Below the pieces are notes generated by a model. That model had not been told where the DNA came from. It saw only the letters and a list, made by a program, of their open reading frames with translations, and ran no database searches. DNA of 52,975 nt. Source: a virus (lineage: Duplodnaviria > Caudoviricetes). The translations under genes and the position numbers were made by a program. Below, one piece after another: positions 14,004 through 16,756 of the stretch. The stretch covers positions 1 through 52,975 of IMG/VR virus record IMGVR_UViG_3300046170_000181; one strand, 5' to 3'. How positions within the stretch are numbered: the first letter of the stretch is position 1; every line of letters begins with the position of its first letter.

Positions 14004-14514
14004 GGCGTAGTTGTATACGCTAACCACTACCCCCCACCCGGCAGTCGCCCCGGCCCCCCTTGATCGGCCGCAAACCCTTGTAGAATATAGGTTTTTTAGG
14101 GTTAATCGTTTAGCGTTTAGTTATTTATTACAAAAGCCCGGCGGAATATTCCCGGGAAAAATAACCATAAAAAAACCACCGGCCCGGGCAAGCCCCCGGA
14201 AATAAACGGTTATTAAATCCGGGCCGCATAACTAGGGGTTATTCGCCGGCCATGGCCCGGGATTTTTCCCCGGTGCCCCCATTACGGAAACCATAAGCCG
14301 GCGGGACGGGGCCCCCGGTGCACGTTATCCGATATTTAAACCCTATCCCCCCGGCGTAAAGCCGGAACGGGCCCGGGGACGGTTTCACGATTAACGGCGT
14401 TTTAAAGCCCATTTAAAGCCCCTAATTATTCCCGGGCTAGGTTACCAGCCGGGGACGTATTAAAGCCCCCTATGGCCGTTATATGGCCGGCCAGCGGAAC
14501 GGTTAACCCGGCGC

Positions 14515-14551
14515 AATAAAAAACCCCCGGACGTAATGCCGGGGGCTTGTT
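14515..14551 (-). terminator. Terminator of cassette 2
   Basis: Minus strand CCCCCGG-loop-CCGGGGG-TTTTTT; near-identical to 15691-15727. Confidence 0.8.
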
Positions 14552-14573
14552 TCGTTTTTATCCGGGGGGGAAA

Positions 14574-14705
14574 TTATCCGCCGGCTTTCCATTCAATTAT
14601 TGCGGCATCAATTCCGGGGGCCATCCATAGCAGAACATAAAAAACCCCAAACATCAAAACCAGCGTTATGAATTCCGCAATGGCCGTTAATATTGTTTTA
14701 AACAT
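14574..14705 (-). CDS. Small membrane protein (43 aa)
   Basis: MFKTILTAIAEFITLVLMFGVFYVLLW, one transmembrane helix; GAGGGG RBS after the DUF932 stop. Confidence 0.6.
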   Translation of the reverse strand: MFKTILTAIAEFITLVLMFGVFYVLLWMAPGIDAAIIEWKAGG

Positions 14706-14716
14706 ACCGGGCCCCC

Positions 14717-15589
14717 TCATTCCGCAATGCCGGCGATTTCTTCGGCCGCGTCCCATAATGAACGGTTTATTTTTACGTTATCCCGAACGGACGTTATCCC
14801 CCGGGCTTTCCGGAAATTGCCCCCGGGCTTTTTATCCGTCACGGATAGGATAGGGGCACCGCCGCGAATAACATTTTCTTGAACCCGGTTAAATGCAAGC
14901 CATGCATTCGGGCCGGCGTCCCCGTATCGATTGGCCGCGTTTAAAGCGGAAACCGTCCGGGCCGTAAAATAAGCCCCCCGGGGGATTTCTTCGCCGGCGT
15001 CAATTGCCCGGCTATCATTCCAGCGCATACCGGCGGCACGGATTGCGATTTCTTGCGCGGCCGCTTCGCTTATTTTCGTATCTTGCAAGCGGAAAATTCG
15101 TTCCATAAGCCGGGGCAATTCCCCCGCAATATCGGAAACCATGCTTTCAAAACCGGCCGCATTGCCCATGCTATGGCGTAACCGGGTTTCTATACCGTCC
15201 CCGGAAATTAGGCCATTGGAACAAATAAACCGATAACAGCCGGCGAATAATTTTAATGAGCTGGTGCCGTCATGGCTATTATATAGGATTAATTCGGCCC
15301 GGAATTCCCCGGCGTTGCCAGCGTCCCCCCGGTGCGAAAATGCCAGCATATGTTCCGCATAATTTTGGCCGTCAATTTTCCGGCTTCGCTTTTGCGCGGC
15401 TTGCGTTACGCCGTAACCGTAACCGTCCAAAATATCGATAGCATCCCCGGTGCTCAAATAACCGTAACGGCTTGACCGTTCCGGGCTTGCGTATCCGGTG
15501 AAAGCGGCCGGGGCTTTTGTTGATATATCCGCCGGGCTCATGAAACCGTCATTAAAGTTACGGCTAAAGATTAAATCTTGATTTCCCAT
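14717..15589 (-). CDS. DUF932 family protein
   Basis: S.RY..LST, H.L.F, LILYNSHDGTSSLKLFAGCYRFICSNGLI and W..FNRVQEN motifs of DUF932. Confidence 0.85.
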   Translation of the reverse strand: MGNQDLIFSRNFNDGFMSPADISTKAPAAFTGYASPERSSRYGYLSTGDAIDILDGYGYGVTQAAQKRSRKIDGQNYAEHMLAFSHRGDAGNAGEFRAELILYNSHDGTSSLKLFAGCYRFICSNGLISGDGIETRLRHSMGNAAGFESMVSDIAGELPRLMERIFRLQDTKISEAAAQEIAIRAAGMRWNDSRAIDAGEEIPRGAYFTARTVSALNAANRYGDAGPNAWLAFNRVQENVIRGGAPILSVTDKKPGGNFRKARGITSVRDNVKINRSLWDAAEEIAGIAE

Positions 15590-15684
15590 TTTTCACATTC
15601 CTTTTTTTAGCTAGTGAATTAACACCGGCGGCACCACGCCACCAGCTAAGGGCCATTATAAAACCAATTTAAATAAATTGTAAA
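15590..15684 (-). promoter_or_regulatory. Promoter and conserved leader of cassette 2
   Basis: TTTACA-18-TATAAT, hairpin with GUGGU loop, then AATTCACTAGCTAAAAAAAGGAA before the ATG. Confidence 0.7.
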
Positions 15685-15690
15685 GCCATT

Positions 15691-15727
15691 AATAAAAAAC
15701 CCCCGGCACGGCGTCCGGGGGCTTGTT
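15691..15727 (-). terminator. Terminator of cassette 1
   Basis: Minus strand CCCCCGG-loop-CCGGGGG-TTTTTT. Confidence 0.8.
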
Positions 15728-15748
15728 CTGTTATATGTTCCGGGCCGG

Positions 15749-15832
15749 TTACGTCCCGGCGGCTTTCGATATCAAAAGGGCTATCCAATACCAGAAAACG
15801 CAAAAGCCGATTGCGATATAAATCCCCCGCAT
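15749..15832 (-). CDS. Tiny membrane peptide (27 aa), absent from the ORF track
   Basis: MRGIYIAIGFCVFWYWIALLISKAAGT; TAATG-coupled to the upstream gene and followed by the terminator. Confidence 0.55.
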   Translation of the reverse strand: MRGIYIAIGFCVFWYWIALLISKAAGT

Positions 15833-16533
15833 TATGCGGCAACCGTTAGCGCGTCCGGGTTATCAACTACAAAACCCCCGATATCCGCTTTTGCGATTTT
15901 TCCTTTTGCCTTTAATCCTACTATAACCCGGCCGGCTTTACTGTTTATTAAATCGCTTGCGTCCCCGTCAATAACCGGCCGGCCCATGAATTCCGCCGGG
16001 AAACCCCCCCGGAAAACTACGGCCAGCGGGATATTAAATTTTAAAGCCCGGTTAACTTGCGCGGCATATTGCGGCCGGCCAGAATAACTAAACATTAAAC
16101 GATAATTATCCGGCGTATTGCCAAGCCGGGCGGCGCGTTTTGTGTAATCGTAAAAATAAATATTCGGGAATAATTGCGGAATTCCTAATTTTTCCCATTC
16201 GATATCAGATAAAACATTAAGCCGGGCCGCCGGCATTAAATCCCGTTTTATGCAATATTTCTCAAAATTGGTTAATTCCCGGATCAATTGATCCATGAAT
16301 TCCGCCGGGTTATTCTGGAAAAATTCCGTTTTCTTTTGCCGGCTTTCATTAACGGATTTATAAACCCCGGCAAAACCGGTGCTTTTTAAGCATCCATCCA
16401 TGCACCCGGCGGCTTTACTACCGGGGCACAAAATCAAGTTAGGATATAGTGAAAGCCCGGCCACCTTATAAACGGCGTTTTTATTTGTTTTGGCCAGTTT
16501 TGTATTTGCGCCGGTTGTGTCTAATAGTTTCAT
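15832..16533 (-). CDS. Gp88-like phage protein (Cys-cluster protein of unknown function)
   Basis: NTKLAK, CPGSKAAGCMDGCL, RLNVLSDIEWE, FYDYTK, VIDGDASDL and IVGLKAKG motifs; start MKLL at 16533 after an AAGGAA RBS. Confidence 0.75.
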   Translation of the reverse strand: MKLLDTTGANTKLAKTNKNAVYKVAGLSLYPNLILCPGSKAAGCMDGCLKSTGFAGVYKSVNESRQKKTEFFQNNPAEFMDQLIRELTNFEKYCIKRDLMPAARLNVLSDIEWEKLGIPQLFPNIYFYDYTKRAARLGNTPDNYRLMFSYSGRPQYAAQVNRALKFNIPLAVVFRGGFPAEFMGRPVIDGDASDLINSKAGRVIVGLKAKGKIAKADIGGFVVDNPDALTVAA

Positions 16534-16619
16534 TTTTCGCGTTCCTTTTTTAGCTAGTGAATTGAACCCGGCACCACACCGGGCCCGGATAGTATCGGGC
16601 CAAAATAAAAAAAACGCAA
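16534..16619 (-). promoter_or_regulatory. Promoter and conserved leader of cassette 1
   Basis: TTGCGT-17-GATACT, hairpin with GUGGU loop, then AATTCACTAGCTAAAAAAGGAA before the ATG. Confidence 0.65.
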
Positions 16620-16756
16620 TAACTAAATTATAACAACGCCACCGGGCCGGCCATGAAAAAAAATCTGTTATGACCATTATTTTATTTAGTTATTAATCTG
16701 TACATACATAGGTATGCATACAGTAGCAGTAAGTCTCCACGCGCCAGTTTTCAATA

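Follow-up and report, generated by a model that had tools for sequence, protein, structure and literature searches.

What fills a short piece of a phage genome with one four-letter word and empties it of many others? This question is raised by positions 14030-16697 of IMG/VR record IMGVR_UViG_3300046170_000181, a linear record of 52,975 bp that is estimated to be 99% complete and was analyzed over its whole length (the window). Its DNA polymerase is 60% identical to that of the Roseobacter RCA phage CRP-3 and 38% identical to that of HMO-2011. The window phage is an HMO-2011-type marine podophage, and 14030-16697 is its accessory (moron-like) module, which lies between the late and early arms, has all of its genes on the minus strand and comprises a GP88-family gene, a DUF932 gene, a small hydrophobic open reading frame (ORF) and a spacer of ~0.5 kb. 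A sequence-only reading had noticed that 14031-16660 is saturated with CCGG and had taken this region for the leading end of the phage DNA, rewritten to avoid host recognition motifs, with CCGG as a possible binding, modification or decoy array. The observation is confirmed here and extends to a group of phages; the interpretation is supported in part.

The run rule behind the CCGG excess

The region 14031-16660 contains 84 CCGG sites, in agreement with a count by eye of about 80-85. The island's base composition would give 10.2 and the frequency in the rest of the genome 12.9. Per 500 bases there are 14-19 sites inside the region and 0-7 elsewhere. The other words reported as scarce are scarce: GAG and CTC together occur 5 times compared with ~83 expected, and CGAG/CTCG, GGAG/CTCC and CAGG/CCTG are each absent from the island. 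GAC stands within GACG in 5 of 6 cases, as had been read, and GTC likewise within CGTC in 16 of 18. Both large genes carry ribosome sites of the AAAAAGGAA type, in line with the AAGGAA Shine-Dalgarno sequences described for them. The boundaries are also as sharp as had been claimed. With bases classed as strong (S; G or C) or weak (W; A or T), a likelihood scan found the maximal S/W-persistent segment at 14030-16697 with 238 nats, compared with 9 nats for the runner-up in the window. This maximal-scoring segment, which is assigned to no strand, consists of S/W runs, is rich in CCGG and poor in AG/CT, and is called the compositional island below.

The enrichment was said to run through coding and noncoding DNA. 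It does so, and it exceeds what protein content and codon usage produce. We made 1000 synonymous shuffles per gene, in which either the gene's own codon usage was kept or the usage of the backbone (1-14030 and 16661-52975 of the window) was imposed. Own-usage shuffles of the two large genes gave 12.6 (standard deviation 2.4) and 11.7 (standard deviation 1.9) CCGG sites compared with the 25 and 22 observed, and recoding with backbone usage gave 4.8 and 4.0. The CCGG excess is real beyond amino acids and codon usage.

CCGG is nevertheless not the underlying signal. The dinucleotides of the island predict 34.5 CCGG sites and its trinucleotides 68.9; thus, most of the excess follows from a rule of low order, and CCGG is mostly a by-product of that rule. 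The signal itself is a strand-symmetric, generic first-order nearest-neighbor bias. Measured as the S/W switch rate (class changes per step), it amounts to 0.277 in the island compared with 0.50 expected, and to 0.484 in the rest of the genome. All dinucleotides that join S to W have lowered odds in the island (AG/CT 0.40, GA/TC 0.59, AC/GT 0.61, CA/TG 0.63), and all pure dinucleotides have raised odds (AA/TT 1.67, CC/GG 1.55, CG 1.43, AT 1.32, GC 1.25, TA 1.11). The bias is equal on both strands, and the lengths of S and W runs are roughly geometric. This rule, by which each base tends to be followed by a base of its own class (G/C after G/C, A/T after A/T), generates an excess of CCGG, GGCC, GCCGGC, AATT and TTAA, and brings words with AG/CT, GA/TC, AC/GT and CA/TG close to loss, GAG/CTC foremost.

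The rule weakens as constraint grows: it is strongest in noncoding DNA (switch rate 0.231), followed by the junction between codon positions 3 and 1 (0.24-0.25), then by 2-3 and last by 1-2. The observed switch rate was below that of all 1000 synonymous shuffles. The backbone is unbiased, with codon junctions at 0.94-1.03 of expectation and gaps at 0.97. The rule is therefore confined to the module and absent from the backbone.

Four general sources of such a bias were considered and rejected. A genome-wide mutation bias, unmasked where constraint is weak, is ruled out because synonymous junctions and gaps of the backbone are unbiased. Codon adaptation or the tuning of rare codons is ruled out because the third base tracks the class of its neighbors and because noncoding DNA is the most extreme; the module's preferred codons (CGG, TTA, CAA, GTT, GGG, ATA) follow the S/W rule and are set by the neighboring bases. 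RNA structure is no cause either: for both strands of the spacer (543 nt) and for the 5' region of the DUF932 gene, folding is no better than that of shuffles with the same dinucleotides (z = -0.84, -1.53 and +1.47). Finally, helical periodicity or curvature is excluded, as there is no power near 10.5 bp and merely weak power near 13 bp.

The island in related phages and in present-day variation

All seven related phages that cover the locus have an island of 2.5-3.5 kb, which ends in each case at the same conserved noncoding element (13974-14073 in the window). The S/W ratio of their islands averages 0.64-0.72 and jumps to 0.87-1.03 past the element. In all seven, G+C content (GC) climbs as the element is approached, the mean going from 0.47 up to 0.61, and beyond the element it is down to 0.40. 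Tetranucleotide z-profiles of the window and four relatives (L027, L030, L023 and L032) correlate at r = 0.79-0.90 despite DNA identities of 65-89%. Island identity roughly tracks backbone identity (for example, 81.8 vs 84.5% and 88.9 vs 92.0%), and some pairs with discordant identities point to exchange between lineages. The loci differ in their genes, with GP88 in 4 and DUF932 in each of the 8 that cover that part. The sequence-only reading had asked whether related phages show the same or different words at this place; the run structure is the same, but the CCGG word itself is not conserved, as two relatives (L028 and CRP-235, see below) have lost it.

The same tendency is seen more widely around GP88. 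When gene and flank were compared at 74 GP88 loci with distal flanks, the S/W ratio of the gene was the lower one at 63 loci and its CpG the higher one at 60, and the gene was poorer than the flank in AG/CT at 59 and in GAG/CTC at 70. The exceptions (11, 14, 15 and 4, respectively) include unbiased HMO-2011-like cases. The window, with an S/W ratio of 0.55, is the most extreme case in this comparison, the lowest value among 80 other GP88 genes being 0.66. Many other GP88-bearing contigs have almost zero CCGG in gene or flank.

The island is genuine sequence and is present in seawater. At least half of the words sampled from 12000-19000 are contained in 20 runs from 18 seawater studies, and in all four runs that were mapped, each from a different study, Logan contigs span the island and bridge both of its edges. 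Contigs from independent runs and studies thus rule out an assembly artifact or chimera. Variation is concentrated in the island: of the 40 variant places listed (of 124), 29 lie in it, although it makes up 38% of the stretch compared, and the window differs from L004, a fragment of the same phage, at 6 of 586 island bases (1.0%) and 24 of 5746 flank bases (0.42%). Among co-occurring strains, 26 variants change the class of a base. Of these, 17 shift the edge of a run, 5 break a run and 4 mend one, compared with a random expectation of 41% shifting, 52% breaking and 7% mending. The runs are thus preserved in the variation of today, and the bias is under active maintenance.

Recent import of foreign DNA, from a donor pool of like composition and not yet ameliorated, is the first explanation that these data address. 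It would fit the contrast in composition that is classical between morons and their flanks, the predicted autonomy of the cassettes, the exchange of islands between lineages and the wide distribution of GP88 in marine phages. Co-divergence of island and backbone down to 65-70% nucleotide identity, however, has left time enough for amelioration, and the variants seen today still preserve the runs. The rule is thus of long standing and remains in force, which speaks against a recent import that has yet to ameliorate. In addition, the island had no blastn match in 50,697 phage records, and a scan of viral contigs for the leader motif shared by the two large genes gave only fragment L004 of the same phage and seven unrelated loci. 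We regard such an import as very unlikely.

Exchange on a smaller scale is visible inside the island. Contigs from two runs (X3 and X6) match the window to the right of 14631 and 15683 and continue leftward into other sequence of ordinary composition. These alternative joins at cassette borders indicate mosaicism at the level of cassettes.

The relatives also bear on CCGG itself. The sites could form a functional array that serves a binding protein, a methyltransferase or as a restriction decoy, and a residual preference for the word does exist: the 84 sites exceed the trinucleotide expectation of 69 (z = 4.0) and are 2.4 times the dinucleotide expectation, five other islands have 1.5-2.0 times theirs, and CCSGG occurs at 24.7 per kb in the island compared with 2.7 per kb in the backbone. 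Against an array, the island of L028 has 16 CCGG compared with 41 expected, while its backbone has 35 compared with 34 expected, a purge of the island only (P ~6e-6). The sister island of L030, ~80% identical to that of L028, has 70. L028 keeps 7 of L030's sites, and the lost ones are now varied one-base neighbors of CCGG. In CRP-235, CCGG occurs 0 times in the island compared with 12 expected and 3 times in the backbone compared with 87. Both phages retain a GP88/DUF932-type module and the run bias; thus, a conserved CCGG array is unlikely, and CCGG is dispensable and, in some hosts, counter-selected. The flanks of the sites vary, and a scan of 38 distinct ORFs of the window, a subset of the total, with Pfam, PHROGs or both showed no methyltransferase gene. 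An array of the kind proposed in the sequence-only reading is highly improbable. The CRP-235 backbone is also without CGCG (0 compared with 90 expected) and lacks several hexamers, and the CRP-3 island is without CGCG.

Selection, mutation or a cis function

What, then, maintains the runs? We tentatively favor selection on the DNA itself: a host-transcribed module would be exposed to DNA-targeting defenses earlier or more than the rest of the genome. In the exposed module, target words of mixed composition would be shed; the backbone would need merely to avoid a fixed list of palindromes; and CCGG would build up only where the host of a lineage does not counter-select it.

Restriction is known to shape DNA that enters first or is expressed early, as in the first-step-transfer DNA of T5 and the class I region of T7. 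The module is like these regions in being accessory DNA that varies and is transcribed by the host. The early arm of HMO-2011 opens with GP88, and in the T7-like pelagiphage HTVC120P a homologue of GP88 belongs to the early region, upstream of the gene for RNA polymerase. The island-only loss of a 4-bp site in L028 is a further likeness, being the pattern predicted for a first-exposed region. The differences are that the window island shows no site-specific purge, is enriched in palindromes and has genes directed opposite to the early arm. In the available part of PMC12455610, motifs in the first-injected region are reported to decide sensitivity to Type I restriction in marine Autographiviridae. 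The leading regions of conjugative plasmids, as far as the accessible text of PMC13478746 goes, are GC-richer than the rest and show no consistent depletion of short palindromes. The window island shares both features. The plasmid regions, however, are reported to be adapted to host codons, whereas the codons of the window island follow the S/W rule and not a translational optimum.

Classical site avoidance is strong and unusually broad in the window phage, and it is genome-wide rather than specific to the island. The backbone lacks GGATCC, AACGTT, TTCGAA, GGTACC, CAGCTG, CTCGAG, CCATGG, CCGCGG, AGGCCT and GACGTC altogether (Markov expectation 8-15 each). It has a single CCWGG compared with ~60 expected, no GGWCC compared with ~44, and no GCWGC. 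These missing hexamers, like the missing CGCG and CCGG of CRP-235, resemble the restriction-site avoidance seen across whole phage genomes. Such avoidance is word-specific and affects the whole genome, whereas the island bias is a low-order rule confined to 2.7 kb. One site, GANTC, occurs 0 times in the island compared with 1.85 per kb in the backbone. The claim that the region was rewritten to avoid host motifs divides in two: rewriting at the DNA level that is specific to the module stands, and a set of purged recognition sites does not.

Several observations weigh against selection by early exposure. None of 17 testable palindromes is depleted in the island beyond Markov expectation. Palindromic hexamers are more varied there than elsewhere, with 27 of 64 present compared with a mean of ~18 in backbone pieces of the same length, and they include 8 CCCGGG, 14 GCCGGC, 8 CGGCCG and 5 GAATTC. 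The 6-mer vocabulary is down only by about a third (905 distinct 6-mers compared with a mean of 1370 in the backbone). A generic first-order bias looks more like a mutational or physical process than like the sum of many motif purges. The purge in L028 could instead reflect import of its island from a CCGG-avoiding lineage, as L028 and L018 are 87.6% identical in the island and 79.6% in the backbone. The CRP-3 island is GC-rich (0.55-0.62) with almost no S/W bias, and the GP88 region of HMO-2011 has none. The genes of the island point away from the early arm. The HMO-2011 record is deposited as circular, and those of the CRP phages begin, by convention, with the first base of gp01. GP88 and DUF932 are families of unassigned function, without a PADLOC match or a relative in the PDB, and no known anti-restriction family was detected among the module proteins by Pfam, PADLOC or PHROGs.

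The order of entry also bears on exposure. The sequence evidence consists of assembled contigs from 24 runs, whose ends are arbitrary, and the mapping of four of these runs reported no molecule ends. Contig ends were rejected as termini, since the ends of the window record are internal in G001, a collinear relative of ~53 kb. Of 12 fragmentary contigs, 10 break inside the island, 58-3327 nt in and never at one fixed place. The literature searched, as far as its text was available, gives no virion DNA termini. An attachment site (attP) beside the island is ruled out for CRP-3, where the published att primers put attP between record positions 2849 and 3642, in the early arm.

A local, neighbor-dependent process of mutation or repair at a recombination hotspot is a possible, if doubtful, cause. 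Repair of heteroduplexes, or error-prone synthesis, would bring an S or W base that stands alone into the class of its neighbors, with a component toward GC near the edge element, and the runs would be a neutral by-product. A first-order bias with roughly geometric runs that is strongest where constraint is weakest has the form that such a process would give. The climb of GC toward the conserved element in 7 of 7 phages, the higher density of variants inside the island than outside, the mosaic nature of the locus (joins at 14631 and 15683, discordant identities of island and backbone) and the breaking of those 10 contigs inside the island all suit a hotspot as well. We know of no process that homogenizes S/W class between neighbors, although we made no search for one, and this counts against the explanation. 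The bias is, moreover, equally strong in the GP88 gene at a GC of 0.44, the same as that of the backbone; thus, GC-biased conversion is not the core of it. The bias has left no mark on synonymous sites and gaps of the backbone, so that only a strictly local process would do. In L028, finally, the purge of CCGG from the island alone shows that selection on words acts in the island too.

A third explanation is that the runs act in cis as a functional property of the DNA, with the conserved edge element as their anchor. They could load a nucleoid, packaging or replication protein, or have a mechanical or topological role between the divergent arms. The island does adjoin a noncoding element that is more conserved than the flanking genes and at which all seven phages show an abrupt shift in composition. 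The strand symmetry is what a property of double-stranded DNA would show. There is also structure within the G/C runs: in 6 of 6 metagenomic islands, CGCG and GCGC reach 0.25-0.5 (about a third) of the number that dinucleotides predict, while CCGG, GGCC and GCCG are in excess unless purged. A length of 2.7 kb, however, is very long for a cis site, the ~10.5 bp periodicity of the helix is missing, and, the shared leaders apart, no defined site turned up in repeated copies. The biased stretch also includes two protein-coding genes, and the strength of the bias differs widely from one relative to another. We therefore consider a cis function rather unlikely.

Selection on exposed DNA, which we prefer, and a local mutational process share a broader statement, namely that marine podophages hold the accessory or early module around GP88, which the host transcribes, under a separate, actively maintained S/W rule, caused either by a general shrinkage of the space of defense target words in the DNA first met by the host or by an undescribed, strictly local process of neighbor-dependent mutation or repair. 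In this general form we advance it with reserve, as one possibility. Were the rule selected, the runs would be a signature of the DNA that a phage exposes first, readable from metagenomes without culture, and an evasion strategy based on composition would join the known site-by-site avoidance. Were it mutational, it would reveal a neighbor-dependent process that acts locally where phage recombination is frequent. In both cases, CRP-235 and other cultured relatives offer a recodable test object, and two abundant marine phage gene families, GP88 and DUF932, are flagged for functional work.

Anatomy of the module and its surroundings

Morons, as described in lambdoid phages, are autonomous units of promoter, gene and terminator with a composition unlike that of their neighbors. 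Each large gene of the module is predicted from its sequence to be such a unit, with a sigma-70-type promoter, a hairpin leader and an intrinsic terminator. The location between conserved arms, on the side of the integrase, and a composition sharply unlike the flanks are further likenesses. The module departs from sporadic morons in being present in all seven relatives with the locus and in co-diverging with the backbone, and it departs from morons in general in that its composition is an extreme, still-maintained nearest-neighbor bias and not a simple GC shift.

The left edge of the island is formed by the conserved noncoding element at 13974-14073, which is assigned to no strand and consists of a G-run, a TACCCGTTACCGTATACAAC-like core and then ACTGTCAAC. 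A second copy of ACTGTCAAC lies ~100 nt further toward the late genes, so that the neighborhood of the element covers 13860-14073. The element can be aligned in 10 of 10 related loci, where it has the densest invariant columns and marks the edge of the island. By blastn it is ~80% identical compared with 65-70% in the flanks. It is a candidate cis site for packaging, replication or regulation.

The element is followed by the noncoding spacer at 14074-14520 (no strand), in composition the most extreme part of the island. Over 14031-14573, which slightly overruns it on both sides, GC is 0.55, there are 23 CCGG sites and the S/W switch rate is 0.231 compared with 0.494 expected. A search of Rfam gave no match with an E value below 0.38. 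At 14521-14548 on the minus strand, a terminator-like hairpin of 10 pairs, followed by a T run, ends the unit of the DUF932 gene and the small ORF; it also scores on the plus strand (14524-14545). The small hydrophobic ORF at 14574-14756 (minus strand, 60 amino acids in the ORF list) is, by position, the counterpart of an ORF of ~70 amino acids that follows DUF932 in seven relatives. It did not cluster with the relatives' ORFs by blastp, the correspondence being positional only.

The DUF932-family gene lies at 14717-15589 on the minus strand and encodes 290 amino acids. It matches Pfam PF06067 with an E value of 1.3e-26 and 94.2 bits (gathering cut-off 23) and belongs to phrog_12094, which PHROGs labels as of unknown function. 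Among the matches listed from literature that mentions the family, DUF932 was not named in title or abstract, the parts of those sources that were available. Its predicted promoter and conserved leader occupy 15590-15684 on the minus strand. The promoter, TTTACA-18-TATAAT from 15684 to 15655, matches 11 of 12 consensus positions in a promoter scan and is a consensus prediction. The leader, which the GP88 gene has in common with it, runs from a hairpin (15626-15641) through AATTCACTAGCTAAAAAAAGGAA to the ATG. In the hairpin region, at 15641-15648 on the minus strand, stands the octamer GCTGGTGG, which we take to be the Chi sequence of E. coli. The GP88 leader lacks GCTGGTGG, so the Chi-like octamer is probably a coincidence.

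The GP88 unit ends in a terminator-like hairpin at 15697-15724 (minus strand), which is followed by a T run and also scores on the plus strand. The GP88-family gene lies at 15832-16533 on the minus strand and encodes 233 amino acids from the ATG at 16533 (Pfam PF17338, E 3.1e-33, 116 bits compared with a gathering cut-off of 24.4). The family is large, with 1155 homologues at E<=1e-10. Cys36, Cys44 and Cys48 are invariant in an alignment of 40 sequences. The predicted structure has a pLDDT (predicted local distance difference test) of 87.5, and no PDB structure matched this model at E<=0.001 in a Foldseek search, which listed only weak TIM-barrel-like rows. When bacterial genomes were scanned with the profile of the family, 6 loci came up, mostly on contigs of metagenome-assembled genomes, and no host was identified.

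Upstream of GP88, a leader and probable extended -10 promoter lie at 16534-16640 (minus strand), with two hairpins and then AATTCACTAGCTAAAAAAGGAA. The extended -10, TGTTATAAT from 16635 to 16627 on the minus strand, is a consensus prediction made by direct reading; the promoter scan requires a -35 hexamer and so does not list it. Common to the leaders of both large genes are a hairpin and then a AATTCACTAGCTAAAAAA(A)GGAA ribosome site. Three viral contigs that match the leader motif by chance (L011, L013 and L014) have ~35% GC, zero CCGG and an S/W ratio of ~0.8 over their whole 13-14 kb, a mild, contig-wide form of run bias.

On either side of the module are the two conserved arms. The late arm (terminase, portal, capsid, amidase) is on the minus strand and runs leftward. 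Its predicted promoter is at 13769-13741 (TTGACA-17-TACGAT, promoter scan). The early arm runs rightward on the plus strand from ~16800, with the genes for integrase, ThyX, primase-helicase, DNA polymerase, endonuclease I and RNR. A search for tRNA genes found none.

Two early genes are broken in the record. The integrase is split into 17503-18204 and 18239-18568 by an extra G at 18192, which is missing from fragment L004 and from 3 of the 4 runs mapped. The helicase is split into 20965-21774 and 21746-22189 by an extra T at 21738, also missing from L004. The two extra bases are probably homopolymer errors or rare variants of the record. The two ends of the record (1-360 and 52680-52975) match adjoining, partly overlapping places in G001 (~3150-3770); the ends of the record thus represent an arbitrary cut inside a repetitive tail-fibre-like region.

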